A DNA stretch of 63,707 bases, filler included, from Cercozoa sp. M6MM (taxonomy: Eukaryota > Protista > Endomyxa: Ascetosporea): the NCBI GenBank assembly GCA_040357565.1. It is 6 parts of 6 records of this genome, joined end to end, with 100 filler letters (N's around TTAATTAATTAA, not from the genome) between each part and the next. Parts side by side here need not be neighbours in the genome. Positions count along the whole stretch, not along the records: positions 41,172 to 60,342 come from JBDODJ010000215.1; 5 more parts are not named here. One strand, written 5' to 3'. Position 1 is the stretch's first letter, and each line of letters begins with the position of its first letter. Below the pieces are notes generated by a model that did not search any database, was not told the DNA's origin, and was given only the letters and a program-made list of their open reading frames with translations. The translations under genes and the position numbers were made by a program. Shown here piece by piece: positions 4,739 to 60,342 of this stretch.

Positions 4739-5364
4739 ATGATCGCGAGAGCCCGTAAGGTACGGTCGTCGTATCGCATCGCATATTATTTTCTCGCGAA
4801 GATGCGATGTCTCCGTGTTTGAGCTCAGGCAGTGGTTGACTACTGGCACCACCCACATGGCATGAAGACGACGCACTTCTGGGGCCCTGTCGCTAACTGG
4901 GGTAGCTGATCCCCTCCTACATACGCCCCAATGTGTAGCCGGATCCGAGCTTGCACGTGTCCTCTTGTCTGCGTAGGCTTTGTGCTCGCTGGCCTTGCCG
5001 ACTTGAAAAAGCCGGTCGAGTTTGTTTCGGTAGCCTCTGCCTTTTGTTTTAGTGTGTTCGGCCTGTAGCATGCGCTTGCACTGTACCTAGGGTCCCATGA
5101 GTTTCGCGCTCTGTGTGTACTCAATGCTGTTCATGCGATTCGCGTGGATGGTCCAACCGCGCAACTACCTGCTGCTTGCGTGCCATATCTCGAACGAGAC
5201 AGTGCACATGTACCACCTGACGCGTAACTTGCCCCTTTCACGTTTTACCGACTTTATTCTTGCCGACCTGAATAATTGGATTTGGATCACAATGTGCAGG
5301 AAAAACGCTTTGGGTAATGGACCAGAAGCAGCAAGAGGAGCAATCACTCGTCCAGGCCGAGTAG
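4739..5364 (+). CDS. MPC1: Mitochondrial pyruvate carrier, MPC1-type
   Basis: Spliced: [88 protein letters not shown]...[14 protein letters not shown] and [19 protein letters not shown] are MPC1 hallmarks; 4 GT-AG introns. Confidence 0.95.
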
Positions 5365-5594
5365 GCCCGAGTTCACTAGAGGCGGGTTTAAACCATCCGT
5401 CTCGTCTGTTTCTACGTTGCTTTCGTTTTGCCAATTTATTGATGGGGTTCTCGTCTCTCACCAAGTCCTCCGCGCGGAACACCAGCGTTTCCGCGGCCCG
5501 GATTAAAACAGAAGGAAACGGAGTATAACGTATTTTCGCGAAAACGAACTAAGCGGGAATGCTGGAAACGACCGAACACGGTGTTTGCCTGGAC

Positions 5595-14675: not shown

Positions 14676-14775
14676 NNNNNNNNNNNNNNNNNNNNNNNNN
14701 NNNNNNNNNNNNNNNNNNNTTAATTAATTAANNNNNNNNNNNNNNNNNNNNNNNNNNNNNNNNNNNNNNNNNNNN
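14676..14775. other. Artificial contig-join linker N44-TTAATTAATTAA-N44
   Basis: The 12-mer at 14720-14731 has stops in all six frames; the identical construct occurs at five sites. Confidence 0.95.
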
Positions 14776-41171: not shown

Positions 41172-41235
41172 ACAGGGGGGTAAATAGGGGGTAAACAGGG
41201 GGGTAAACAGGGGGGTAAACAGGGGGGTAAAGCAC

Positions 41236-43085
41236 CAGCGAGCGCGACGCAGCTTGGCGGCGTGGATCTCCTCGCGCTTCTCCACCACAGCACCGAGCAG
41301 CTGCCGCAGCTGCGTCAGCATCGGGTCACTCGCCACGTCCGCCTGGAAGCAGGGGTGTCAAGAGGTAGCGGATGGGTCAAGAGGTAGCGGATGGGTCAAG
41401 AGGTAGGGGATGGGTCAAGAGGTAGGGGAAGAGTCACGCGGAAGGTGGGGGGAGGTAAAACCTACATGAGCCTTGGTGGCGTCCAGGTCGCCCTGAGGAA
41501 CGTTGGGACATGACACGTTGATCACCAAAAAGTCGGCACTGTCATACAGCTTGGTCACGCTCGTCACGTAGTCTTGCACCTGGGGGGGGGGGGGNNNNNN
41601 NNNNNNNNNNNNNNNNNNNNNNNNNNNNNNNNNNNNNNNNNNNNNNNNNNNNNNNNNNNNNNNNNNNNNNNNNNNNNNNNNNNNNNNNNNNNNNTGGACG
41701 CAGGCTAGCGGGGGTCCGTAGGGGGAGTAAGTAGGGGGCACCCAGAGGGGGGTAAGTAGGGGGGTAAAGGGGAACACACTTGCCAAAACGCGCCTTGAGT
41801 CGCTGCAGCGCCGCGTCGACGCCCTCACTCGGCAGGCCGTACCGATTAATCACGGCCTCTACAAAAGTACATGCATATATAGTACATGCATATATAGTAC
41901 ATGGATATATAGTACATGGATATATAGTACATGTATATATAGTACATGTATAGTACATATATGAGTACATGTATACATAAGTACATGTAATATAGTACAT
42001 GTCTATAGACATGTACATATGTACGTATATGTTCATGTCGACATTTGTACACAGGTACCAGTGCTGTCGTCCTTAAAGACGCGAGGAAGTGGGTTGCCCT
42101 GTCGTAACATACAATTTATATATATATACCATGTATGTATATATATATATATATATGCATGGGTATACAAATGTATATGTATATATATGTAGGTATACAT
42201 ATGGATATGTATATATATGTAGGTATACATATGTATATGTATATATGTAGGTATACATATGTCTACCTGTTGCGGCTCAGGCACGACACTGCCGACCTCG
42301 ACAAAGCCAAAGCCTTGGTCCAGCACACTGCATACATACATACACATGTACATATACAGAAACATACATAGAGATATACAAAATTACATACATATACATA
42401 CATGCATACATGTATATTATTTAAGGGTACGCATCCACACATGAGGCATTCTTGTCGAAACCCGCCGCCATGCCTGCGTACCGGGGGGGGTAAAGTGGGG
42501 GGTAAAGTGGGGGGTAAAGTGGGGGGTAAAGTGGAGGGTAAAAGGGAAGGGGTAAAAAGTGGAGGGAAGGAGATAAAGTGGGGGCGGGTGAGGGGGTAAA
42601 AGAGGGTACCAACAGGCGAATCGACGTGCAAGTGACCGCAGATCGAAGTGCGCAACATTGCCCTCTCCTCTGTGTCACAGGGGGGGGGGGGTAAAGGTAC
42701 AACACCACAGCAGGCACAAGTACCCTCAGAGAGATCAGCGGCGTGACTGCCTAGGTTAAGGAAGCGCCGCACATGCCGCGGCTGCTGCAGCACGCGCATG
42801 CAGACCGAGTGCAGTGTCTCCGGAGACAACACGTAGGCTGCAGTATCCCTCAGATATACACGCAGGTACCAATCCGAACAAACCAGACCTACATGACACC
42901 GGCAGGAACAGGCCCAGCGGCAGCGACTCCAACGGCATCTCGCCACGTGCCACGGCCAGTGCAGTAGGCACCACCAACACTCCCGTCGCTCCCAGCAGCG
43001 CCAACATGCGGCCCGAGAACGGCGACTTTGCCGAGCCGCCACCCGCGGCGCGCCCGAGCTTTGCGGTCGCGGCGATCGATCTCAT
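41236..43085 (-). CDS. DHODH: Dihydroorotate dehydrogenase, class 2 (mitochondrial), N-terminal part; C-terminus lost at contig end
   Basis: Presequence and hydrophobic span (MRSIAATAKLGR...MLALLGATGVLVVPTALAV), SPETLH, PVGMAAGFDKNA, GFGFVEVGSV, QGNPLPRVF, VINRYGLPSEG, DYV...ADFLVINVSCPNVP. Confidence 0.95.
41595..41694. other. Scaffold gap (100 N) within DHODH
   Basis: Plain N run next to poly-G; probably hides the GVNxGKNK exon. Confidence 0.9.
41865..42420. repeat. Purine-pyrimidine alternating minisatellites in DHODH introns (15-mer AGTACATG[C/G/T]ATATAT; about 30-mer ATGTATATGTATATATATGTAGGTATACAT; CATA-type)
   Basis: Tandem copies at 41866-42040, 42170-42260 and 42330-42420. Confidence 0.85.
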
Positions 43086-43346
43086 TTTCCCACTACTGAG
43101 TGGCACTCAACTGCACGCGCACACACCCACACACTGTGTACCCTAATTATCAGGACGCTTCTTTTGTACAATGGCGATCGAGCCAGGACACAGGACAATC
43201 TGAACCGAAAAAAACCCGGACACTCCCGCAAGTCACCACAAGGTTAGAGGTCACTCGAAGCTTATCAGGTGCGTGATGATTGTGCTGCAGGTGCACTGCT
43301 GACACGCGGGAATGGTGTTCAGCTGTTTTGTTGCGCGCAGACTGAG

Positions 43347-44364
43347 ATGCTGGGAGGAATGAGATCAGGCCGCCGTGCTGCGCAGCAGTTTGTGCGTGTA
43401 TCACGCCAGCAGCAGAGCCGCATGTTTGCCCGCATGCGTGCCGCCATGGTCGTGAGGTAGAAATTGTTGTATTTTGTGTGTGTGTGTGTGCGAAACGCTT
43501 GTCATTGACTGGTGTGCTTTTTGACTTGTCGCAGCTCGCAGTCGATGCTGTTGTCGAACGCAACGGGTGCGTCGCTGCTGGAGGCGATGGCTTCGGACTT
43601 GTTGTCGTGCGAGGAGGAGGAGGATGACGGTAAGGACAAGTTAGTACTGCTGTGAGAGAATGCCTGCTTCCCCTTTGTGTAAGCTTGATTTCTCGCCTCG
43701 TGTGTGTGTGCGTGTTTTCTTTTTGTTTCCTTGTTTCACATTGTTTTTGCGTTTTCACGTGGCTTCTCGTGTGTGTGTGTGTGCTTTGCTTTGCTTTGCT
43801 TTGCTTTGCTTTGCTTTGATTTTGGGGCTGAGGGCTGAAGGTGGTTCTGGCAATTCGAGAAGGTTTGGGGACATCAAATACGGTTGGGAACGCAACTGCG
43901 TGAGCAGCCTCAGCTACCGGTACACGGCACGCTAGCTTTGGAGCTAACAATTGTCAGCGTGTTTGTGTTCTTTGTGCAGGAACGCCAGTTCTGTTGTGTG
44001 CTCTTTTGTGTCCCCTTCGTACGTTTCTTTTTGCCTTTTGCAACCTTTGCTTGTGTTAGCTTTGTTTTGTTGAGTTGCATTTCAATATAAATGGAGAATA
44101 CAAGCTTGGAGGAATTTTGTTTTGTCTGTGTGTGTGTGTGTGCTTACTTTGCGTGTGTTGTGTGCTGCACAGACGTTACACGTCCATCTTGATGATTCCT
44201 GTGCTGTGCCTGCGCAGACAATAGCGGGAAAGCCCGATAAGCCAGTGCTTCCTCCTTCCCTCTTTTGCCCCAGTGTTTTGAGAGTGAACGCATGGCCGTG
44301 CTCTGTGGTCTCTGTCTCGAGTGCATTCTTCTGTTTGTTGGGCACAGCAGGCCCAACAATATAA
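43347..44364 (+). CDS. About 70-aa mitochondrial-type microprotein (plant NFD6/NOXY2-like pattern) with candidate alternative last exons
   Basis: Exons 43347-43456 and 43535-43629 give MLGGMRSGRRAAQQFVRVSRQQQSRMFARMRAAMVVSSQSMLLSNATGASLLEAMASDLLSCEEEEDD, ending at a strong phase-1 donor G|GTAAG. Family similarity is from recall and weak. Confidence 0.6.
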
Positions 44365-44791
44365 AGATGTCGACTGAGCGGGCGTAGTGCTGAACGTCGT
44401 TTCGTCGTAGTCCGCTGTTGCGTCTTCCGTTTCCCGTTCGGATCGTGATTAAACCCAGCTTTGTTTCTTCCTTTTTATTCGATTCCTGCACTTTTGCTGC
44501 CCATGGTTGGCAAACACATACCAGTATAGCTGAGACGCAGTACTGCAGCGCAGCCGGCCGCCTCGCGAGCTGACGACCAGCGTTTTTCGCCGCCATCTAG
44601 ACCGACAGTATCGTATGCTGCCCACGCGACGTGATAATTGCAAAGATCCCACGGTGCTCCGCGAGGACGGAAGAAACGGTCGCGACCTGACCAGAATGGC
44701 TTCTGCTTAAGCTTGCTGCCTTCGCATCTCATGTTGCGAGAGTGCTTTGGGCGAAACAAACGTTACGATTTGACTCAGAACCCAGGCAGCA

Positions 44792-47123
44792 ATGAGTAAC
44801 TATGACTTTCTGAGCGGCTTCAAGCAGAGTGCTGAAACCAGTTCTGTACGAAATTCCTTTGAAATCTCGCCTGCTTGAGTTCTTTCTTTCCGTATACTAT
44901 GCAGGGTCCAAACCTCAATCAATTCGACCCTCTGTCGAAGGAATGGAGTGACACAGACGAAGGATCGAGTGTCTCGCAATCTGAACAATCGGGAGTGCGC
45001 GAGATCTTTTCGCTCGATACTGGAGAAGACGATGAGGCACCTGCACGAGGTTCCTTGATCGTGCGCAAGCCAAAAATGTCTCCTACAGCAACTCAGTTGA
45101 CAAACATGTTTCTCGATTTGAAAGGTACTGCAGTTCAGTTTAAATGTGCCTGTATTGGATAATTGTGCAACCCACCCTATCGACAAACCCAGCGTGTGCT
45201 GTTTTTTTTTCAGTTGAAGACTTTCAGTTCGCTGTTGACCAGCAACAACGCACAGAGAAATCGTCGCCTTCGAGCTCGGTGTCACCCAGCGTCGAGGAGC
45301 AACACTACCACCTGAGTCATAACTTGACCAAGGCAGATGCAGAAGACCTAACAGAGTTAAGTGACTGGCTCGACACGGGTGGTAATATCGTCGTAAACTG
45401 CAGAAACCACTGTTTTTCTTTGGATCTCTCGCAAATTCACCTCAGGATTTGAACGAAAGGAAATACAGTCATCCTCAACCTCGCGTTCCATTGAAGGTTC
45501 CATAAGTAGCGGCTTTGGAGACGCGGATATTGTTGACAGAAGCGAACGCGGTCTGAAGTACCGCAGATCGGTTCATGAAATCAAAACCTCGACGTCCTTT
45601 GGCGCCGTTCAACAAACTATCGACGCGGTAAGAGTTGCGTAGTTATGGACGCATTGAACCAATTTCTGTATTGTCGCCGGTTGTTTTTTACCATTACCAG
45701 GTGACCAAGGCCTACAATCACTTTGATCGAACCGACGTTCTCCAAGAGCGCTTCCACAGGTACAGTAGATTTATCCATGTTTTCGACGTGTTGAGTTGAG
45801 TATAAGTTTACACGCGTTTGCAGAATCGAATGGAAGTTTGAAGTCAGCGGAGAACCGTTCTTGCTCTCGCTTGTGCATTATGTAAGACTATTCACCAGAG
45901 CTACATCAGCATGGATGTTTAAACAGTTATCTGGAGACGATGAAACATCCTCGAACAAAAGAAGGATTGATGTCAACGGTGCTCTGCGGCTTTTTTGTCT
46001 TCAGTATCTCTGAGATGTCTTCGTGCAGGGACGTTGGTTGTTGAAAAGCGACTTCGTGGCATCGAGGCACTTGAGAATTGCGACTACGAGGTGATACTAA
46101 AGAGCAAGCAAGAACGGCGTATCGCCAGAGCGTTTGTCATCGTGCAGTTTGACAAGAAGCTCTCGCTCGGTACAGGAGTTTTCGCGTCTTCAGTTCTTGT
46201 CTCTATATTTATATATATATATATTAGCGAGCGTACTATTGTATTTGCAGGCTCCTCGAAAAGCGATTATCGCAAGGGTTTCAAGTACGGTAAAATAGAT
46301 TGTCTTTGCCACTCAGCCAGGGGTCCTCCGGGTCTTCGCCTTTCAGGCTCCCTTGTTTTAATTTTCACAGACCTCGTTGTCGGAAACCTGTCATTTGATT
46401 CAATGCGAGTTGACTATGCCGCCAGGCAGGTTTCCGACAACCTGACTCCTCGGTCGGTTTTCCGTTCATAAATTGTGGTTTGTGGACAATTTTTTGACTG
46501 ATGCTTACCAGAGAGCTCTGCACGACGGAGCAGCTAGAGAAAAATTGGGAAAGACGTTTCAGTCAATCGGGCAACTGGCGAAAATCAAAGTAACCCCCTC
46601 TATTTGATTGCTGAGTACCCCTTTGCCTGAAAAGGTGTATCGCACCAGGCCATATGGGTAATTGTACATTCTAGGAACGAAATACTGTGGAAATTCCTGC
46701 TCGAAGGCACCCCTAGGCATCTAGAGTTGGTCCATACCACGTCTAACGGCAAAGTAAAGCTGTTCCTTGATGGGAACATTATTCATCGGCAGAAAAAAGC
46801 TCTTACCTCGCCAAACGACCACTTTCAGCGCGTGTGCTGGTACCTTTAGTTGCTAATTTTCGGTACTTTAGTCTTTCATTGCTGAACCACAGGGAAGCTG
46901 TCGTTGAAATTGGTGAGCACGCTTGTGAAATAATAGTGGAGAAGAGCTACGTAAGTTGCAAACTTGTGCGTGCGAGCAACATGTTGGTTTTGAAACTCGG
47001 ATGGTGGGTTTACTGCTTGAGCAGAAAGCGACGACATACAACTTGTACTGCGACAAGGTACTGCAGTTGACAAATGAGGCTTGCCGCTTCGGCTTTGTGA
47101 CATTCTTGTGTTCAGTTTGGTGA
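44792..47123 (+). CDS. Protein with an acidic/Ser-rich N-terminus and two FAIM-like beta-sandwich modules
   Basis: IEWKFEVSGEPFLLSLVH...NKRRIDVNGTLVVEK and ILWKFLLEGTPRHLELVHTTSNGKVKLFLDGNIIH...EIGEHACEIIVEK...TYNLYCD match the FAIM pattern W-x-F...LxH..SGK..(I/L)x(V/L)(D/N)G. End approximate. Confidence 0.6.
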
Positions 47124-47466
47124 AACTGCTATTCCCATGACATGGTATTCTCGCTGTATGCTCAGGTCCCTTTCGAAGCCATGAGGCGAATCGTTCGCAA
47201 AGCAAATCGCAGTCGTTTTTGAAAACGAATAAAAATTGTTCTTCAGGTTGCAAATTTGATGGATCGAAGGACACTGAAGAACTATTTTTGTAAATTTACA
47301 GTGCACGGAAGTGCAACGATTCGGAATCGAGCCAAACTGAAGCCAGGCAGCTGCCTGCAGTAAAACTGGAAATGGAAAGCCGAATTAGTTCTAAATAAAT
47401 ATCTCGGACCTTGAACAATCATTTTACTGTCCTCGTACCTTAGTCTGGCCTCAGACTCAATGCTAA

Positions 47467-50400
47467 ATGAGAGCCAGTCGCAAAGTATCTTCCGCATTGC
47501 TAGCTCTAGTCTTGTATGCGGTCGAGACATGTGCGACGTTTAGCATACTTGAGCAAGTAAATCCTCATTTAGTCTCTCCGAGCCTCACTTATCCCCCCTC
47601 CGAGTTCGTTAGTGTGACTTTTCGTTTGACGGAGTCCAGTTGATCATCCCGCAGTCTCCACGAGCAGTCATTGTATGTTCCAATATAATCCTTCTGCCAT
47701 TTTACCACCTCATACCTCGCCGCCCCCACACCCTCCTCCTGTTTCTCCAGTGCCCCGGTCTGCCTGCGACGTCATTTTTTGTTGACTTCGACCTTGCTAT
47801 CAATGATCCGACACGCGTCGATGTTGATAGAGTTGGCGTTCTGGCCACCTCTGGCACAGAGGTAGTTCAGCCGGATTACGTGCAGTGTAAAGTACAGCCT
47901 GTGCTATGGGTGTGGTGTGCGTTATACCGTCAGTGTCGGGCACCTCCACGCCAGTTCGACGATGGCTGGCTGGCAGAGCGACCGGGTCAGGTCTGCATCA
48001 CCGACCAACTCAGTGGCATACATAAGTTTTACTCTACTAGCTTAGGTGAAGTGCCTTTGACACCGTATACCCAATAAAAGCTCCACAGGGCACACGTGTT
48101 TTCGGCAAGGCATTCGCGTGGCCAACAACGTCACGGCCGATCCCTTGTGTCTGCTTGTGTATTGCCGGTCTTCTGTCGGACGATCGCGCGGCTGTCCCAA
48201 TGTGCTCATCAACAGGTATTTGTTAACACTTGTGCGAGTTGGCAAAGTTTAAAAACAACCTATGCCGTAGGGTCAAGTTTCGAGCAACACTGACCGTCGC
48301 TTCAACTTTTAGGTACGAGACAGCTTTCAGTATTATTGTAGGAGCCGATACCTGCAGGCAAATACCCGAGGGGAGTAAGACACTAGAGGTTGAAGGAACC
48401 GGGTTCGAAGTCACCTGCAATCGCAATGGTAAAGAGACCCTCGAAGGTACCAGTATTAGGCAATGCCTGCTTGCAATTGCAGCTGTTCGGTGTCGTGATG
48501 CCGCCTCCCAGGACGTGCCATGTGAATGCGCCAACGTGTTATCGCCCACTCAGATGATCCTCGAGTTCGCAATGCCACTCGATGCCACGCAGTTCCAAAC
48601 AGGCGCCCTGCAGGTCAGTGTGAGTGCCGCAGGTTCCGTTCCCACTGAGTTCGTCACCGTCGGTATCTTCCTGCTTTAGTTTATCGAAAAAGGAGAGTGT
48701 TGGGTGCGTAGGCACCTTTGTGGAGACTCAAAGCAACAAGGGTCTCCGTGACTTTGCCATCGCTTTTGGAGTGCTGGCGGGTCTCTTCTTGTGCTGGCGC
48801 ATTCTGGTACTGTGAGTGTCTCGTAACTTTTTTTTGGGACCCAGGGTATCTCGGACACACAGGTGTACTGCCGTGTGCAACTCAACAAATCGAGTGACGC
48901 ACACCTCTTCGAAGAGACTTTTGATGAGACGCATGCGCCCCTGTACCGACTTTAATTTAACAGACAACATCGGGAGCCCAAGTTCAATTCATAGAGCAAC
49001 TTGAAACCTGACTTTCGTTAATACTCAATCCCGAAAGTCCGAAGGCCACACCTCCTTTTGGCCTGAGTTCCGGGCCCACTCGACACACTCGGACGCTCCA
49101 AAACGTGTTTGCGACTGTCCGTGGTAGTATGCGTCTCCCGACAGGCACTGTCGTTGCTGAGACGCCCGCTGGTCCTCTGTACTCTTTGCTTTAAAAAATT
49201 GCTTCTCTGAAAACACGTGCCGCTGGCAGTTCACTCCAGCGAGTGCTGGGTTCGGGCACTTTCGGCGTCGTCTACCTCGCCTGCACAATGGACGGCACGG
49301 CAAAATCATACGCTCTGAAGATGATCGAGATTGATGCAACGTCTGACGAGAGGTATCGCTCGTAGGAAAGAAAATTGTTAAACCTTAGATGTACGATGAA
49401 AGCAATGTGGTTTTTGCAAAACAGTGTCGTGTCAGCTGTGCTGCGCGAGAGTGAAATCATGGGCACACTCAAGCATCCAAACATTGTCAACTGTACTATA
49501 CCTCCTCCAGTATATGGATAGAGTTCGAATCTTACTAACTGGGCCTGTGTCGATGTTTGCGTAGTCTATGGAAGCTTCTTGTACCCACCTCTGCACGAAA
49601 CGGCGGACACATTGTCGTCGCACTTGTGTATTCTACTGGAACTGGTCGAGGGAGGCTCGCTGCAGGCACAGTTGGTACAACTGTTTGGGTGCTGTAGTAC
49701 TAGAAGTAAACCAGCCATACAAATACTGCACCGCAGGCACAACTTCCTGGAAGACGCTTGGGTGAAGACACAGCCAAGTGTCTGACCAAACAGGTACTCC
49801 TTCTTTCTAAGTAAGTTTAGGTGCAATTGACCAAGGAAAAAACAAAAGTGGGTGTCACAACTGAGAACAGTTGCTGCTGGGACTGCAGTACCTACACAAG
49901 AAGCGCGTGTTTCACCGCGACATTGTAAGTTTAAGCTCAAGTTGTTTTTTGTTTTTTGCTGACCCGGCCTGCTGCTTGCGCAGAAGTGCGGCAACATTCT
50001 CATGTCGCCGGAGGGAGTGGCCAAACTCGCCGACTTTGGCAGCTCGCGCTTCGTGTCCACCGGTGAGTTAAATTTACCGAAATTGACACTGAACAGTGTG
50101 TCCCTTTCGTGTTTAACTCGTGTCTGCAGCATCAGACAGAAAGACACTGGCGGGCACGGTGCAGTTCATGGCACCTGAAGTTGTAATCCATCTTTTTTTT
50201 GGGCTTCAGTTGTAGTTTCTCTGAAAGTACCAGGTTTTGCTTGGTGTCAGGTGCGCCAGTCGGGCTCCGGCTTGAGTTCCGACATTTGGTCGTACAGCAC
50301 TCTACGAGATACCTGCATACCCTTACTACTATCTGTATTGTGCCGATTGCTTTGGTTGCATCTAGATGTGGGGCAACGGTGCTGGAGATGCTGACTGGTA

Positions 50401-52059
50401 GGGCTCCATGGAATGAGTAAATTAACTTCGTGCTACTATGATACAAGATGTACGACCCCGGGGAGTGCACAGGTGTGAGTCGCAGCACGCAGTGCTCTTC
50501 CAGATCTGCTTCACTCAGCGCATTCCGCGACTGTAGTTTTTTTCTCTTCTGGCTAGTGTACTTCCGTGCCTGTGTATTCGTGTACTGTACAGCCTTTCGA
50601 GAATACTGCACATGTATGCATAGACCTTCGACAGTGACACCTGAATGTCGTAACTTTCTGCGCCGCTGTTTCGTTCGCAATGTAAACTCTCTGACCAAAG
50701 TAGACAGTGCAGTATGTGTATCTTGTGCAAGTTACCCTTGGACAGGCAGCCAAGCGACCGACTGCCGAGGAATTATTGCAGCACCCGTATTTCTTACCGA
50801 ACTCAACTGGCCAGTTGTTCAGGTTGTACAGTAATGTATTGTCAGGTGGCTGGCGGATGCGCAGATTCCCGAGTGTCTGGTGCAGTCGCTGGCGTCGCAG
50901 GGCAGTTTGGAGTCGTCGAGCAGTCATGACAGTTCTCACAGCGAGACCTCGTCGCACTGGCAGAAGATGGAAGCAGCCCAGGTATGATTTGATGCCAAGG
51001 CAATGCCTCCTTTCCTGCCTAGAAACACACGGTGTCTACTCAGAGAGCGACCGAGCATGCGTGGATGCAGCGGCAGCAGCAGGCACAGGCACAGCCCTAT
51101 GCGCCTGCTACGCTCCACCATCCGCCTGTCCACGCGATCGCTCCGGGACAAACGCCCTTGATGCAGACACCCTTGATGCAGACACCCTTGATGCGGACTC
51201 CCTTGATGCGGACGCCCTTGATGCAGACTCCCTTGATGCAGACACCCTCGCAGACACCCTTGCTACCAACACCTGCATTCGGATACACACCTCCCCAGCC
51301 GCACATGCAGATTCAGAGTAGGTTCTGTCCGTCTCTTGGTATGTCCGTACGCTCATGTGCTCTGGTGTCTGGGGTAGCAACAGTGCGCCCGATCTCGTCA
51401 GTCTCGGCGACGGAGGCCTTGGACGCAGTACTGCTCCAGCGACTCTCTGGTACTACTGCTCATGGTGTACATATAGTACATGTATTAATGCCATGCACGA
51501 CACAGGCCAACGCGTCAGTAACGCTCAGCGCGCGCAGCTCTTCTCGCTGTGGCAGGGTCAGTTGTCTTGTCCTTCTTGCACGCCTTGCTTTAGCATGCTG
51601 GTAGTACATGGTATTCTTTATGACTGACTTAGGCCTCGACGTGCTGGTGTCGCAGTCGGACGGTTCCAAAGTGCGAGATCGCTTGCGTCTATCGACACAG
51701 CTGCTGCTTCAGTTGGACACGGGTCGTCTGCATACTGACACGAGGTATCGGTGCAGGCCCTCAAAGAAATTCAAGACATCGAGATCTGATGAACTGGTGT
51801 AACTCTAGTTGTCTCCGAGTGTGTCCTGCCACGCTCTCTCTGGGCGCCTTTGCACCAGACAAGACGTTGTTGCTGTGCGACCTGGTGCCACTGAGCGACA
51901 CGCCTCGTCGAGGTCAGTCTGCCTTGTCTGCCGTGTTGGCATTGTGCTTACTGATCTCTGACAGGCCAGGGTGTGACGGTGCTCGTCGAATTCGCAAGCT
52001 CTACCGAGCGACAGAAGGCACTGCTGGCGGCGAGAACTTGCTCGAGCTTGAGATCTTGA
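47467..52059 (+). CDS. Single-pass receptor-like Ser/Thr kinase with a STE11/MAP3K-type catalytic domain
   Basis: Signal peptide MRASRKVSSALLALVLYAVETCA, beta-rich ectodomain, TM FAIAFGVLAGLFLCWRILV, in-frame spliced linker, then LGSGTFGVVY, ALK, LKHPNIV, LELVEGGSL, HRDIKCGNIL, KLADFG, GTVQFMAPEV, SDIWSCGATVLEMLTGRAPW, RPTAEELLQHPWL. Confidence 0.85.
51148..51262 (+). repeat. Coding 15-nt tandem repeat encoding (Q/R)TPLM
   Basis: Six full CAGACACCCTTGATG-like units plus QTPS and QTPLL variants, in the kinase C-terminal exon. Confidence 0.9.
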
Positions 52060-52183
52060 GATAGGTCCCAGAATTTGTTATTACGATCAGAGAACGACCC
52101 AGAAAGACTTGTCTGTTCTCCGTTCTTTCTCTCTTCAATATACTTAGAGTAATAGACGTGCGCGTGTGCCAGTAGACATCAAA

Positions 52184-53995
52184 ATGGATAGGTCGGAGCT
52201 AGATCGCCTTCTAAAGCTGTAAAGACTCTTGTCACAGACTATTTTTCCCGGGTCCTAGTAGCCCTCTACCTTTTGCTACCATACCCTAGGCCAGAGGAAT
52301 GGCGTCAGGGGGAGTTTGAAAACGGCTTCAATGCCGCCGTGTGGTTTCGCGAGATTGCTGGGTAAATCAAAGTACCTCTGCAACCTCCGCTATCGATTGA
52401 CCTGCCCTTTGCCCCATAGCGAATTGATGCGAAATTGGCGCATCATCGTGACTACGTATGCTGACTACACCCTCGAAAATTATCTCTTTTCCAATTGTAC
52501 GGACGGTTTTGCAGTGCCGAAAAACGCTCGGTTTATGCGCTCGGTGAGGTGGAGTTTTATCTGCAGCACGCCGATCACTTCATGGATCCGTTCGCGCACG
52601 CTTCTAGTCTCGTAAGAAACACTTTCCGCACTCTTTTGCTTTCTCATTCTGGATGCGTGCATGCCACGTCAGTTCTTTTGTTCAATTTTTCCTTTTACTT
52701 TTATTCACTTGCAGCAAAGAACGACATCGGGCAATTGGTACTTCCATCGAGCAGGCACGGCAAAGAATGGCAAGGAAGGCGCCTACAAGGGCGGCTCCTA
52801 CAAAGGGTTCCCTCTACTCTCGCTGGCTTTGTACAAAACTAGAGTATGTTTTGTTTTTGCAAAACAAACAGACTCGACCTGACGTTTGGCGATCCGGGGC
52901 GCGGCCTTGTGGGCGGCATGCTGATTCGAACGATTGTAGACACTGAATCCAACACTGTTATTGAGGTGAGCTGACTGACTTTGTTTTTTCGTTTATTTTT
53001 CTCAAACCGAAATGATTGAACAAAAAAAAACCGTCTGTATCCAAACGGTGTTGATTCCAGGGACCGTGCCGCACGGTGGACACGCTACTGAAGGCGAGTG
53101 GTGCTTCAAGCATCGTGGACTTTGTCGGAATGGACAGTTTCCGGCTTGACGCCCTGTCCTCACTGTCTGAGAGTGTATTTATTTTTCCTTTTTTGTGTTT
53201 AGCTCAGTGGTGTTTAATTTGGTTTGGCAGGAGTACGAGGCGCCGCTGCTGTCGCTGTGTCGACCAGAGGAACAGAAGCACACGACCAATGACAAGACAC
53301 TCCTGGCGTCTCCCAGGTGACTGTTTTTCTTTTCTTTTTTATTCACTCAACCTTGAGAAAGGTGTGCTTAGAGTGGGCCTCACGCTGAAGAAAGACACGC
53401 CGCAGCGTCGCTTGTTTCAGATGCGGCCGCTGCGTTTTTTGCTGTCGAATTTGCTGCAGGAGGGTCATATCCGCAAGTACAAGCATGTAGACTCTCTGTC
53501 CTGGACCTGCCTGGCAGGGACTTTTATTCTTGTGAGTGTTTCAGTTGGCCGCCTTGTCGCTCTATGTGAGTCTCAACGAGGATGCGGAAAGCGTGCGCGA
53601 AAAGGCCAAGCTCGGCAAGGTGCAGCTGCGCAACTACGTTGCCCACTTCAGTAAAGGCCTGTCTGTGTACGTCCTACTAACTTCACCCGGCACTTCAGGT
53701 GTTTGACCGATGTGTTGTCAGCAGCAACGTCTGCAAGCAGAGCGACGAGAGCGAGGAACCTCCCGCCAAGCGACGCCGTGTGCAACTGCCGACCGCCAAA
53801 ACCGATGTCGCTTCGCTCTGCACACTCTTCGGTACTGCACCTAGTCCTCAGTTATTCGGTTGTAGATTAAAGCCATCATTTTGCTGGTGTCTTGATTCAG
53901 GCGCACTGTACGACCCGGCATCCTACGCCACGGTGCTATTCCAACCTGAGACTAGTACTCCAACCACGCGTACGAACACGCCTGGCAGCGAGTGA
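52184..53995 (+). CDS. 3-methyladenine DNA glycosylase (MPG/AAG)-fold-like uncharacterised protein
   Basis: WFREIAGELM, LGEVEFYL, DPFAH, QRTTSGNWYFHR, YKGGSYKGLDLTFG, GGMLIRTI, IEGPCRTVD, SPRVGL, MRPLRF parallel the AAG motifs IAxxLL, ExEAY, VLIR, GP, PRVG, PxRF. Confidence 0.65.
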
Positions 53996-54328
53996 TTTTT
54001 TTCATTCGCTTCAGTTCGAACTGAACAAAACTGCGCTGAACGTTCAGTTGACGGTATTTTCGTTTACCGTACTGAATTCGAGCTTCAGGGAAACTACTGA
54101 ACATCCACCTCTACCAGTAAGCATAGCCTGCTGTACCGTACGTACGTAGAGAGAAGGTTTTTTTGTTAAATCTTCTCACGATTTTCCCCGTGGCGGAAGG
54201 TCGAGTTATTTTCACATACATATCGATCTGGTACACTGCCGCTTAAAACCGGCTAACTGGTGATCATGATTTCGTTTAGCTGCTAGCTTGAATTTAACAC
54301 GACACGGGACGCGCAGATGGATGCGATT

Positions 54329-54425
54329 TTACTTAAGTGAGTGGCCTTGTCCCGTAAAGGCCTGGAAGTTAGCGGGCTGCCGCAAACACAGACGAGTACA
54401 AAAGGACAAAAGGAAGGGCCACTCA

Positions 54426-54516
<91 letters not shown>

Positions 54517-55560
54517 ACAGGCCGGTTGGGGTCGGCTCGGCCTCCGCGCGGACCACCTTGGTCGCCGCCGCCACTCGGGCCGGGCGGACCGCCGCCGCCG
54601 GCGTTGAAGCCACCAAAGCCGCTGAAGGCGCCGCCGCCGCCGCCTTGTGCGCCCTGCAAAGCACACACAAAGCGTAAAGAGGAATGAAGGGCCTCAAGAA
54701 GGGTGTCGGTACGAAGGCGGCCATGTCGATGGGCGGAGCATTCCAGCGCAGGTCTGCAATGCGTTGTTGCACGGCACAAAACGACACAAGACATATGCTG
54801 TCCAGTTGTACCATTGTAGATAGCGCGTCCGATCACAAATTCGGCGGCGTAGACAACGATCGCAACGATGGCAGCCACCATGAAGACATCTGCACAGTCG
54901 GCAACATACGCGCAGCCGAGGCACAAGACACACGCGGTGACATACCAGCAACCCACGACGGCGTCTCGTTGTCGGGATCGTTGCCGATCTGCCGATTGCG
55001 TACGAGAAACATGATGAAGCTGACTGCGTAGCCACACACATGCACACATGCACAGGTCGAAAGGCAGAAAAGAAAACTCGCTGTGCAAGTGACTCACTGC
55101 CATTCATGATGAATCTGAAGCACGAGAACAGCGTCAGGCACATGATCTGCAATCCGAGCACACATCATACCACATGTGGCAGGTGTTGGTGTATGTGATG
55201 GCATCCCTACCTGCTGCATGTTAATGTATCGAGGCAGGTCGCGAAGTGACATGAAGCCAATCATGAGAAGCACAAGATCGAACATTGCCGAAAAAATGTC
55301 GAGCGTCACAAAGTTACTGCGTTCGATTCGATGTAGATGCTTTACACAACGCAGGACAGCAAATGTGCATAGCGTACAGAATGACAACGACTACATGCGC
55401 ACATAGTGCGATTTTGAGGTACTTTGCGTATTTCTTCGACTGGTCGGTGGCCTCCAAGCTGCAAAAACACACATTTCTCCTCAAAAGTGCCTTCGATTGC
55501 AACGAAACATCATTAGAGGTGCTGATACAGGCTTTCCGGCCCAGCAGGAAGCAGGCACAT
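54329..55560 (-). CDS. About 4-TM membrane protein with a Gly-rich tail and a C-terminal SHP box (p97/Cdc48-binding motif)
   Basis: Hydrophobic spans IALCAHVVVVILNFV, IFSAMFDLVLLMIGFM, IMCLTLFSCFRFIM and MFMVAAIVAIVVYAAEFVIG; ends PANFQAFTGQGHSLK* (FxGxGxxL). Confidence 0.7.
54435..54512. repeat. (GA)n microsatellite in intron
   Basis: About 39 GA units, read as (CT)n on the sense strand of the minus-strand gene. Confidence 0.95.
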
Positions 55561-55869
55561 CCCTCGTCGACTACAGGATACGCCAGAAACGTTTGCAGTC
55601 CATTATTTTCTGATCGGGATATCCTCCTTTATTTTGCGGTCAGCGCTCCGGCTTCCGGCGGCCGATACATCGCGCTCGCCTGTTATGATGATATTTGTGT
55701 ACTGTATGTTTGCTACCCGAACAAAAGTGCAAATCTGTGTTTCGAAGAACGTGAGGTCACTTCCGATCGGCTCCGCGCGGAAAACGATGCACCAGCTGGT
55801 CACGAACCACGAAACCACGTTGGCTTTTTCTGCATGTCGGAGGGTGCAAGCTGGCATCTAAGTGTTAGA

Positions 55870-58800
55870 ACTGCTTGGGCACGTCCATGTCGCAGCCAGT
55901 GCCGTCGTTTACGGTCCCGGCAGGGACCAACATCACAAACGAAACGCAGCCCACAGAAGGCCTGACCTGCATCTCAGGTGCCAAGTGCACGCTGTCAAAG
56001 GAAGCGACCGTGATTGAACCGTGTAACGAAGGGTTCGCATGCGTTGATATTGATCTCATGCGGTCCATTGCCAACGGCTCGGTTTCGCCAGAAGAAGTAG
56101 AACTAAACGATACCAACATTCCTCCAGATCGCTATGGTGCCTGTCTTCCGTGCTCTGGTCTCGGAGCGCACTGCCCCAACGGCACAGTGAATCAGCTGTA
56201 CGTGTCCTTATCGATGCTGTGTCAAGCTGGACACTTTTGCCCGAATGGTAAATTCTACTCTCCGGCATTGCATCATTCTTGGAACTGTGCAGCAGCGATA
56301 TGGTTGAAACGCAGCCAGTGCGCAGATACCCTGCCCTGTGGGCACATTTTGTCCCCCTGGAATGCCTCGTCCTCTTCCTTGCAAGATACCCGGTTTCTAC
56401 TGCGCTGAAATGTCGACGAATCCCGCCGATCTGCCCTGCAAAGCTGGGTTCTATTGTCCGAATGCGTCGATGCAAGTCGAGTGTCCCCGGGGTAGCTTCG
56501 AATTGAACAGGGATATAATTTTAATCAACGGCATTCTTCGTGTACAGGACACTTTTGCAAAACCATGTCAGTATCACCTTCTCGGTGCCCGTTTCTGGCG
56601 TTGTGTCCTCCCGGTACATTAAAGTGGATGTCATCCTCCCTCATACCTTCGCCCAGGATTTTTGAGCTACAGGAACCGACGCTCCGTCCATCGTGTGGAC
56701 TGGCTTCATTGCTGTGGTTGGTGTGGTGCTGTGCTTGCAGTTTCTCATAAAGTTCTGGCGTCGCTTTGTGTCCAAACGAGAGACCAGGAAGGCAAAGTCA
56801 CTCGAAGACACTCAACGCGAACATGAGTTGTTCTGCGCGCTCCTGAGAAGCGTCGACTGCGAGTCCCTGGTCGAGTCAGTCAGCTTTTCTGGTTTCAACA
56901 TCAAGAAGACTGCAGTGTCGGTGCAGTTCCAAGATCTCGGACTCACGCTGAAAGCCAACAAGCAAGTTGTGCTCAAGAACGTTAGTGGCGAGTTCCCGGC
57001 TGGCAAGTTGATCGCTCTCATGGGACCTTCAGGCAGCGGCAAGACGTCCTTTCTGTTCACACTCTGCGGAAAGGCGCACTACGGTCAACAAACAGGTACT
57101 TCCCCAAGATTAAAAGACACTCTCAGAAACTATTGCACCTTGTTTTCTTTAATTTACAGGCGAAATATTGCTGAACGGAACTCCAGTGAGGATAAGAGAC
57201 ATTCGAGGCGACATTGGCTTTGTGTAAGTTCACACTAATAGGTTCATTGCGTTCGTACGATCGAGCAGTTGGCGCTTGCTTGTCCAGGCCGCAAGACGAC
57301 ATTGTGCACGAAGAACTCACCGTGAGGCAGAACATTGCCTTTTCAGCGGCTCTGCGTCTTCCGGTGGGAACCGCGTCCAAGCAGCGCAGACTCATCGTTG
57401 ACGACATCTTGACGATGCTCGGTCTGTCCGAAATCCAAAACACGCGAGTTGGTGGAGTGACACGTCGCGGCATCTCCGGTGCATTGTGTTGCTTGTCGCT
57501 TATGCTTTGATCTATCCCTGTTCGGAGCTGCATTTTGTGCAGGTGGACAGAAGAAGCGCGTCAACATTGGTCTTGAATTGGCAGCGCACCCGATGCTGCT
57601 GTTTTGTGACGAGCCTACCTCCGGATTGGACAGTACAGCTTCCATGGAAGTGGTGCGAGGCTTAAAGAAGCTGTCGCAACTTGGCACATGCGTCGTGACC
57701 GTGATTCACCAGCCGCGTTGGGAGATTTTCACCATGTTTGATCTTGTCCTGCTCTTTGGTGCCGGCGGAGGAATGGCCTACCTCGGAGCAGCGAGTCGCG
57801 CACCCGAGTACTTTGAAGATCTTGGCTTTCAGGAAGCTACACCTGGAAGCAACGTCGCTGACTGGTACGCTCGTCGCCTTATGTGCGTTCACTCTAAAAT
57901 CATAGATGCAGTGTGCACCGGCAGGCTGGTAGATTGCATCAGCGGCAGTGTTCCAGTGTTGGGGAACCCGACTTTCAGGCCAGTAGATCTGTTTGACATG
58001 TGGCACTCACAAACAGAAGAAGAGAAAATGGCTTGGTGCGCACCTCAATCGCCGAAAGCGACAGGCGAAAGACGCCGGAGCTGGGTGGCAAAACCGCCAC
58101 ACCTCTCCGGATTACCGCCCAAATCGATAGCTGACTTGACCGATTTGTTCATGAGTAAGCAAGCTGTTCCGCTGTGATTGATATCACAACATTTTTTTAC
58201 TTCACTTTGGATGTTGCTGAGCAGAGTGCGATGCCGACAACTCGGGGTGCTTGGACAAACAAGAAGTGACGGAACTCATGAAAGTCATTGGCATCGCGTT
58301 TGAGGAAGCAGATGCTGACTCGTTTTTTCGCATGTTTGACCTCAACAGCGATGGGCGGATTGAGCTTCATGAGTTTTTGACTGGAATCACCGAACTCTCG
58401 GTGTCGAACTCTCGGAAACGCGCGTTTCAGAACCTTCTTCGTCAGTCTCAGTATCATTCTTGTTTTTGACTTATCAGTATCTTTCCAAACACAGGCATGC
58501 TCCGAATTGTATTCACTAGAATAGCAATACCGGCAGCTGAAGCGCCGGAGACAGATGACGAAAACGCGCAGCAGAAGCACCGCCGCGTCACTGTGCAAAT
58601 GCGCAACGTCAAAGTGAAGCTGTTCTCCGGCGCGCGTCGCAGTGCCGAGACGGCCCGATACATGGCACTCCTAGGCACGCGCACCAGTCCAGGCTTCTTG
58701 CGGCAGTTCGCAGTTCTCCTAGAACGCAGCATCATTGTGGAAGCTAGTCTGGCGGCCACTTTGGCCATGGAGGCTGGTCTCATTCTCGTGGGAGCAGTGC

Positions 58801-59742
58801 TGGTCGGCGTCATCCAAGGAGCGGCCTGGGCACTACCGTTGTACGGATCCATGGTGCAAACAGCTATCGTTCTCATAGGCACACTCGACGTGGCCTCATC
58901 GCTGCGACTGTTCGGCAAGTCAAAGTCGATCTACTGGCGCGAGGCGGCGAGCAACGTCAACCGTTTCTCCTACTGGTCGGCCAAAGTGACAACGCACACG
59001 CTGCTGCACGTCTGGAGTCGTCCGCTTTTGTTTGTGCTCGTGTACTACAATCTGATTCTGCCCCGCACGGCCTTCTCTCGCTTTTACGCCGTGTTCCTTG
59101 CGACCACCTTCTGCACCACCGGTACCAACCAACACCGTTAACAACCATAACCTAGAGGATGCGACTCCAGCTTCGCACTGTAGGAATGGGCATGCTGTTT
59201 TCCACTCTGTTCGGACCATTAACGGCACTGGTAGAGAGATACTTCGATTTACATGCATGTCACACTCCTGTGTCGGTCACTTCTCCATCCGTCTCTGACA
59301 GTTGGTAGCTGTCGTAGTGCCAGTGCTGTTGGGTGTGTTCTTTGGCGGCTGGAGTCCTCCGCTGAAGTTGATGCCGGACTGGCAGCGCGTCGTTGCCTCG
59401 GCATCCTTCGTATCAGACAATCTACAGACACACAAATCTGTGACACCATTCACACCCTGTGTAGGCGCGTTGGGCCGTCGCAGCGTTGCTCACCGACGAG
59501 TTGTCAGATGTGCCACGCCATCTGGTAAACTTAAATTTGCTGGGGTAAAGTCTCGCAGTTATCAGGAGGGCGAATCTGTCAGTGTGTGACAGGAAATCGT
59601 GCGGGACGGTATCTTTTTCAAAACCGGGTTCACTCTAGATGACTGGACCTACGCCGTCGGCATGCTGTTTCTGCTGGGCGCCATCTTCCGATCGCTGTCC
59701 TTCTTCGCACTTGTCGGACGCCATCGCGGCAAGCAGCGGTGA
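55870..59742 (+). CDS. ABCG half-transporter with a Cys-rich ectodomain (plant ABCG24/28-like layout) and an EF-hand pair
   Basis: CxxGxFCP/CxxGFYCP repeats, TM, Walker A GPSGSGKT, QDDIVHEELTV, ISGGQKKRVNIG, LLFCDEPTSGLD, VIHQPR, EF loops at about 58230-58372, TMD with IYWREAAS. Start approximate. Confidence 0.92.
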
Positions 59743-59849
59743 ACGGAAGGACGGCATGTTTTATTTGGCACACGACAGTGTTAGATTAAGTTATCGCAGG
59801 GCAGTACGGCTGATACAGTATGCGATGCACTAAGTTATACGATAGTTGA

Positions 59850-60160
59850 CTACTTGAACCACCGATCGAGACTCAGGCCGGCTCGCGGTTTCCGTTTCTT
59901 GGTGTCGCCGCGCGTGCGGTCGTGCCGTCGCGAGCGAGCAGTAGTGCCGCCGGTGTCGACTTTGGCAGTGCTGACTTTGGCAGTGTTGGTGGTGCTGCCG
60001 AGGCAGCGTTCGACGTGGCGCTCACGGAGTCGTCGCGCGCCCTGCAGCAGCGTGTTGCAGATGGGACACCGCACCTCGGGTTCTGCAAGACACAACATAA
60101 TGTGGATGCTGGAGACTACCCCTACACACTACTGTCTGGGTGTACATATACATGTGTGTA

Positions 60161-60221
<61 letters not shown>

Positions 60222-60340
60222 GTGAGTATGTGTATGTGAGTATGTGTATGTGTATGCAGAGGAAGGACCAGGCTGAGGAAGCAGGCGACGTTTCTTTGGC
60301 GGCGGTTGCTTGTCCATGTGCTGGTCCACTCTGTCCCTAT
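59850..60340 (-). CDS. C-terminal fragment with NLS, UBZ4-type zinc finger and terminal PIP-like box (DNA polymerase kappa-like tail)
   Basis: PPPKKRRL; VRCPICNTLL...RERHVERCL; ends KKRKPRAGLSLDRWFK*. Catalytic domain is not in the contig, so identity is inferred. Confidence 0.6.
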
Positions 60341-60342
60341 CC

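Follow-up and report, generated by a model that had tools for sequence, protein, structure and literature searches.

Can a gene for a very small protein give that protein several different ends through splicing, and could such an arrangement be shared between an amoeba and plants? The question is raised by a locus of the rhizarian amoeba Cercozoa sp. M6MM (assembly GCA_040357565.1), which has since been named Lemnamoeba sinaloensis (PMC13746701). The window, that is, the whole stretch of DNA analysed here, is 63,707 nt long, and the locus lies on the part at 41172-60342 (JBDODJ010000215.1). Runs of N at 14676, 31935, 41072, 60343 and 62314, flanking TTAATTAA, are apparent joiners of separate contigs. 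The constant part of the gene is laid out as follows; here and in the second list, features called likely or candidate were read from the sequence only.

43269..43340, plus strand: likely 5' UTR intron, 72 nt, GT..GCAG, with 6 nt between its end and the ATG.
43347..43456, plus strand: coding exon 1, an Arg-rich, acid-free, amphipathic N-terminus and predicted mitochondrial presequence; covered from 43359 by a transcript contig, and the NCBI proteins begin here.
43457..43534, plus strand: intron 1, 78 nt, phase 2; missing from the spliced contig.
43535..43629, plus strand: coding exon 2, a small/hydrophobic helix segment followed by the acidic patch EEEEDD, closing at the single phase-1 donor; present in the contig and the NCBI proteins.

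The microprotein starts at the ATG at 43347, and exons 1 and 2 together hold 68 codons plus one nucleotide, so the donor at 43629/30 (G|GTAAG) is in phase 1. The coordinates and translations that a first-pass annotation had assigned to the gene were correct on re-translation. The same annotation described an Arg-rich, acid-free N-terminus, and this description stands with one correction: residues 1-52 contain no acidic residue, eight Arg or Lys and a hydrophobic moment of 0.81, and the first acidic residue is number 53 (53, 54 and 59 in the three plant NFD6/NOXY2 proteins compared). By composition and amphipathicity, the N-terminus fits a mitochondrial presequence, and a mitochondrial location is predicted. 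A single-sequence AlphaFold model, which gave one helix over residues 4-62 (pTM 0.48), was uninformative.

Beyond the donor, the protein can be continued in a series of ways:

43630..43655, plus strand: donor GTAAG and read-through tail GKDKLVLL, stop at 43653-55 (MES1912162.1).
43863..43903, plus strand: acceptor 43863, tail GLGTSNTVGNATA, its stop overlapping a donor-like GTGAG at 43900 (MES1912161.1).
43980..44073, plus strand: two candidate acceptors, 43980, with a 26-aa tail and a branch-like CTAAC at 43944, and 44060, with the tail ALFC.
44173..44192, plus strand: acceptor 44173, tail DVTRPS (MES1912159.1).
44218..44240, plus strand: acceptor 44218, tail DNSGKAR (spliced contig).
44274..44281, plus strand: candidate acceptor 44274, tail VF, with the strongest pyrimidine tract of the array.
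44348..44364, plus strand: candidate NAGNAG acceptors 44348/44351, tails AGPTI or GPTI.
44411..44448, plus strand: candidate acceptor 44411, tail VRCCVFRFPFGS; the ATTAAA at 44448, with T-rich sequence after it, may mark a common 3' end.

Every tail given in the first-pass annotation was reproduced on translation (DVTRPS, DNSGKAR, VF, AGPTI/GPTI, VRCCVFRFPFGS and GKDKLVLL), and its upstream acceptor at 43841 gives way to the annotated one at 43863.

Which of these endings are actually made? A 220-nt contig matches 43359-43456, 43535-43629 and 44218-44244 with 0 mismatches, both introns being removed at canonical ends. Its second junction, from 43629 to 44218, is a 588-nt GT..AG skip leading to the tail DNSGKAR, which bears out the expected use of donor 43629. 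This contig has only 27-28 letters past the junction, under the 31-letter bridging rule, and a depth of 6.6; it comes from a single run, taken as RNA by guess (share 0.05), and, as the lone contig on 42600-60000, it is silent on the other acceptors and on levels. A 29-nt intron just past the contig end (44245-44273) was considered and not adopted.

The annotation adds further endings. A word search with the exon-2 frame led to one protein, MHM6MM_004480 (Cercozoa sp. M6MM; cluster n=3), and the three NCBI isoforms under this locus tag share the 68 residues and then continue with GKDKLVLL, DVTRPS or GLGTSNTVGNATA. MES1912160.1, whose number falls between the three isoform accessions, was absent from the isoform cluster and the word-search matches. 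The 'update' step of the funannotate pipeline adds transcript-based isoforms. Funannotate with transcriptome reads, this step included, is reported for the M6MM annotation (PMC11069148), and the locus tag is unmentioned in four supplementary files of that article. The three NCBI isoforms most likely derive from the assembly that also supplied the window and so provide no independent genomic evidence; their records show neither transcript support nor abundance, and the read-derived junctions amount to the one in the low-depth contig. By transcript or annotation evidence, the constant 68-residue part has at least four C-termini. The splicing-switched C-terminus proposed in the first pass is supported for four tails (DNSGKAR in the contig; DVTRPS, GLGTSNTVGNATA and GKDKLVLL at NCBI), the acceptors at 44274, 44348/51 and 44411 being still predictions.

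The terminal introns that start at donor 43629 span 233-781 nt, which is exceptional for Lemnamoeba sinaloensis: its genes are reported to have 13 introns each with a mean intron of 82 nt, a value that replaces the approximately 60 nt assumed earlier, and its intergenic DNA is compact, with a median distance of 162 nt (PMC13746701). A long TG-rich intron in an abundant gene could simply collect cryptic acceptors beside one or two main ones, with function confined to the constant part of the protein. We regard such splicing noise as unlikely, although the single junction in read-derived contigs and the poor pyrimidine tract of acceptor 43863 are both in its favor. So is the number of acceptor-like sites, which over 1.16 kb stays at the shuffle level (8 vs. 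6.7, p 0.35), and so is the character of the units, among which no joining sequence repeat was found and whose RNA fold is ordinary (z 0.01). The absence of a repeat between units also led us to reject recent tandem duplication as the origin of the array.

The position of the stop codons argues against noise. In 44130-44470, a stretch picked post hoc, all five acceptor-like sites that pass the filter have phase-1 tails of at most 13 codons (four independent sites, since the NAGNAG pair has one common stop), and none of 2000 dinucleotide shuffles of this stretch reaches five short-tail sites (mean 0.78). The shuffle check suggested in the first pass, that of a YAG followed by a quick phase-1 stop, yields a short-tail cluster beyond chance. 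The background rate of short tails is 0.28 (426 sites in the window), and outside the array no 300-nt cluster of the window holds more than three, which makes the array the densest of the window. Over the wider 43630-44790, six of eight acceptor-like sites are short-tailed (p 0.045); the simple filter overlooks two annotated acceptors, 44173 and 43863. Moreover, about 0.8 kb has been retained in a genome with the reported intron and intergenic lengths given above.

Some tail ends overlap other splice signals. The donor-like site at 43900 overlaps the stop of the 43863 tail, and splicing there would delete that stop. At 44057-44060, the 43980 tail ends in a TAG that doubles as the acceptor AG of candidate 44060. 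TGA tail stops lie within donor-like GTGA(G) at 43652-43657 and 43900-43905.

The first-pass annotation had ascribed a layout with many last-exon isoforms to the plant NFD6/NOXY2 genes, and this layout is real. A degenerate motif gave 70 plant loci with 27 distinct peptides, and a 19-sequence profile made from them matched 1429 proteins, including ones named NFD6 or NOXY2; the best 120 of the 1429 all come from land plants where named. Against the PDB, this profile found nothing beyond one match at E 1. A phase-1 G|GT stands 28-30 codons after the core Ser in 27/27 distinct loci, and in 12/12 hand-picked groups (from 10 clusters) the isoforms split at one point into conserved tails: a read-through tail like GTLCCTSPGL, tails like ELGLSVPR and DGIDGT, and, in seven groups, GT. 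Among 25 loci read, the 16 with more than 2 kb downstream all have an acidic tail exon; in 15 of them it is joined by a second conserved tail exon, which ends in Arg in 10; these tail patterns were drawn up after inspection of the loci, which are mutually related. The micro-tails, of 2-10 residues, are conserved from eudicot-type to grass-type loci, and the amino acids of the ELGLSVPR tail are kept across synonymous codon changes. That the plant counterpart keeps its tails further argues against noise in the amoeba.

In the plant genes, TGA is the final codon of 31/31 conserved-tail exons listed, and a TGA stop in donor-like GTGA(G) also ends exons of the ELGLSVPR and DGIDGT types (L006, L027, L028, L040, L059). 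One NFD6/NOXY2-like copy, L051:2324-2623, is without the first intron and forms one ORF into the read-through tail; the locus that matches it, L059, retains the downstream tail exons. We take At2g15000 and AT5G47455 to be further members of the family. NOXY2 itself is reported as At5g11630 (PMC11979336), and noxy2 mutants are described as showing mitochondrial aggregation and resistance to antimycin A (PMC8358658), which, if the homology discussed below holds, suggests a role in mitochondrial stress. The product of At2g15000 is reported to begin at residue 65 by top-down proteomics (PMC9957804); should this gene belong to the family, the mature plant product would be little more than core and tail.

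How might the amoeba locus work? We think it probable that the constant 68-residue protein, likely mitochondrial, is completed by a short tail picked from at least four, either by competition between acceptors or by the absence of splicing, and that these tails adjust what the mature peptide binds or how long it lasts; these functions are predicted. Donor 43629 would be spliced to one of several competing acceptors, or left unspliced. The first 30-35 residues would act as a presequence that is cleaved after import, leaving a mature peptide of perhaps 35-50 residues composed of a helix, the acidic patch and a variable tip. The tails would alter the charge and the last residues directly behind EEEEDD, and the tip would then be what probably governs partner binding or turnover.

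The spacing of the units bears on how the choice could be made. The first-pass annotation placed each acceptor tract almost at once after the preceding stop, and the measured stop-to-acceptor gaps are 25, 33, 66 and 46 nt. Gaps of this size are too short to hold separate 3' ends or cassette introns, which suggests competition among the acceptors inside a single terminal region, presumably with a common 3' end near 44450-44500. The "terminal micro-exons" proposed earlier would thus more probably be alternative 3' splice sites of this one region. No more than 36 nt separate junction and stop in the packed units, and a later intron is not evident, so junction-driven decay is unlikely, and the nonsense-mediated-decay rheostat also put forward in the first pass becomes less likely.

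The choice of acceptor could instead act on the RNA, by setting the length of the 3' UTR, from about 850 nt in the read-through form to tens of nucleotides, and hence mRNA stability or translation; the tails would be short merely to be harmless. The quick stop in all options would fit this, as would the long 3' UTRs of the read-through and 43863 forms and the segment 43900-43979, which resembles a normal 80-nt intron (GTGAGC, CTAAC, TGCAG) downstream of the read-through stop. In the same vein, intron retention in AT5G47455 is reported to respond to SC35/SCL loss (PMC5362245). However, moving among the packed acceptors changes the UTR by only 45-75 nt with no evident downstream intron, and the plant tails hold their amino acids through synonymous changes, as in the ELGLSVPR codons. 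We therefore consider an RNA-level switch improbable, more so than noise, and retain the variable protein tip as our explanation.

Is the amoeba gene a relative of NFD6/NOXY2? The two have much of their design in common. Like AT4G17310 and its kin, the amoeba gene encodes a protein of about 75-105 aa with a long acid-free basic N-terminus, a short Ser/Ala/Leu-rich core in one exon between a phase-2 and a phase-1 intron, and a single donor that leads to a read-through tail plus several short tails (GTLCCTSPGL, ELGLSVPR, DGIDGT and GT in AT4G17310-type genes). In contrast, the constant part has 68 residues in the amoeba and 89-100 in plants, the acidic residues form a patch before the junction in the amoeba and lie in the tail after the donor in plants, and acceptors are spaced by 45-75 nt in the former and by hundreds of nucleotides in the latter. 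The tails themselves do not match beyond a weak G-K-x-R likeness; by inspection, those of the amoeba fit neither the DGIDGT/DCNDDV-like nor the ELGLSVPR/GQEKTR-like plant pattern.

Sequence searches alone did not connect the two. A word search with the amoeba protein and phmmer against 1.84 billion representatives returned its own locus alone as a relative, two further phmmer matches (2180 and 541 aa) being taken as compositional, and no relative was found in the ESM Atlas, Pfam, PDB sequences or metagenome contigs. The plant profile (27 flowering-plant exon-2 peptides) scores -0.9 bits against MES1912159.1, not above shuffles, and hhalign of this profile with the amoeba protein gives E 0.25.

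The hhalign alignment, with one gap, nevertheless sets the amoeba donor in the plant donor column: it lies 29 codons after Ser39, or 30 with the gap, for a plant range of 28-30. In this register the amoeba core matches the plant consensus in 9/21 columns, and of the invariant plant residues P, H, A, A, A, S and L, the Pro is gapped, the His is replaced by Ser and the first Ala alone is kept. In anchored tests, which were devised after the alignment was seen, p reaches about 0.002-0.004 in the best cases. The fixed-register score of the last 31 residues has p 0.0035 over 32 columns, is equalled in 0/2000 shuffles for the core 19-21 columns, and is reached by 50/51,933 31-mers of the window; among the 1,849 window 31-mers that end at a phase-1 GT[AG], the amoeba ranks third. 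With free gaps, the anchored alignment has p 0.04-0.09 when the full sequence is shuffled and 0.007-0.065 when the acidic end is kept in place. The flanking intron phases agree (2 then 1), and the upstream phase-2 intron lies 7 nt before the core Ser in the amoeba vs. 28-34 nt in the 17/27 plant loci with a listed acceptor, a displacement of 7-9 codons.

The kinship suggested in the first pass draws no support from profile and hhalign scores and some, weakly, from the anchored register. On this sequence evidence we lean towards regarding the amoeba gene as a diverged relative of NFD6/NOXY2, and have not filed it as a member, although it behaves like one in its workings. More tentatively, and at rather less than an even chance, the phase-1-donor micro-tail switch may have been kept in a mitochondrial microprotein family since before the split of plants and Rhizaria, with the tails turning over. 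A competing account, which differs in ancestry alone and to which we also give somewhat under an even chance, is that the locus works as described above and is unrelated to the plant genes, the multi-tail layout having arisen twice. The non-significant profile and hhalign results, the missing Pro and His, the displaced upstream intron and a presequence likeness that is compositional alone favor two origins; the donor standing in the plant register and the match of both intron phases count against them.

Among known systems, tandem NAGNAG and other alternative 3' splice sites also set one donor against competing acceptors, and the pair at 44348/44351 is itself a NAGNAG. Compared with such sites in general, the amoeba has at least five serial acceptors, all of which run into a stop of their own within 2-13 codons. 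Cases of alternative splicing kept across kingdoms are described as rare, the standard case leading to mRNA decay, as in the unproductive splicing of SRSF5 that is common to animals and fungi (PMC4379411). SRSF5 splicing triggers decay in a splicing factor, whereas the amoeba choice changes how a predicted mitochondrial peptide ends; the span would also differ, being plants to Rhizaria rather than animals to fungi. The isoforms themselves are already known, those of the amoeba as NCBI hypothetical proteins and those of plants in RefSeq. The multi-tail design is undescribed, for amoeba or plant, in the literature found, a search that lay outside most subscription journals and the primary NOXY2 paper, which may cover splice forms.

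If the switch is common to plants and the amoeba, the conservation of protein-changing splicing would be pushed much deeper. Even without homology, plant NFD6/NOXY2 genes are shown to carry conserved alternative micro-tails, and the amoeba locus, which fits the whole switch in 0.8 kb, opens a direct question: do the last few residues set the partner or the half-life of a mitochondrial peptide?

Next to the locus, the minus strand at 41415-42380 holds parts of a gene for dihydroorotate dehydrogenase (DHO_dh in Pfam, E 2.7e-6 and 0.28). This gene seems to begin near 43000, in a head-to-head arrangement with the microprotein gene, which makes a common promoter possible. On the plus strand at 5091-5525 of the window, there is a frame that resembles a mitochondrial pyruvate carrier subunit.
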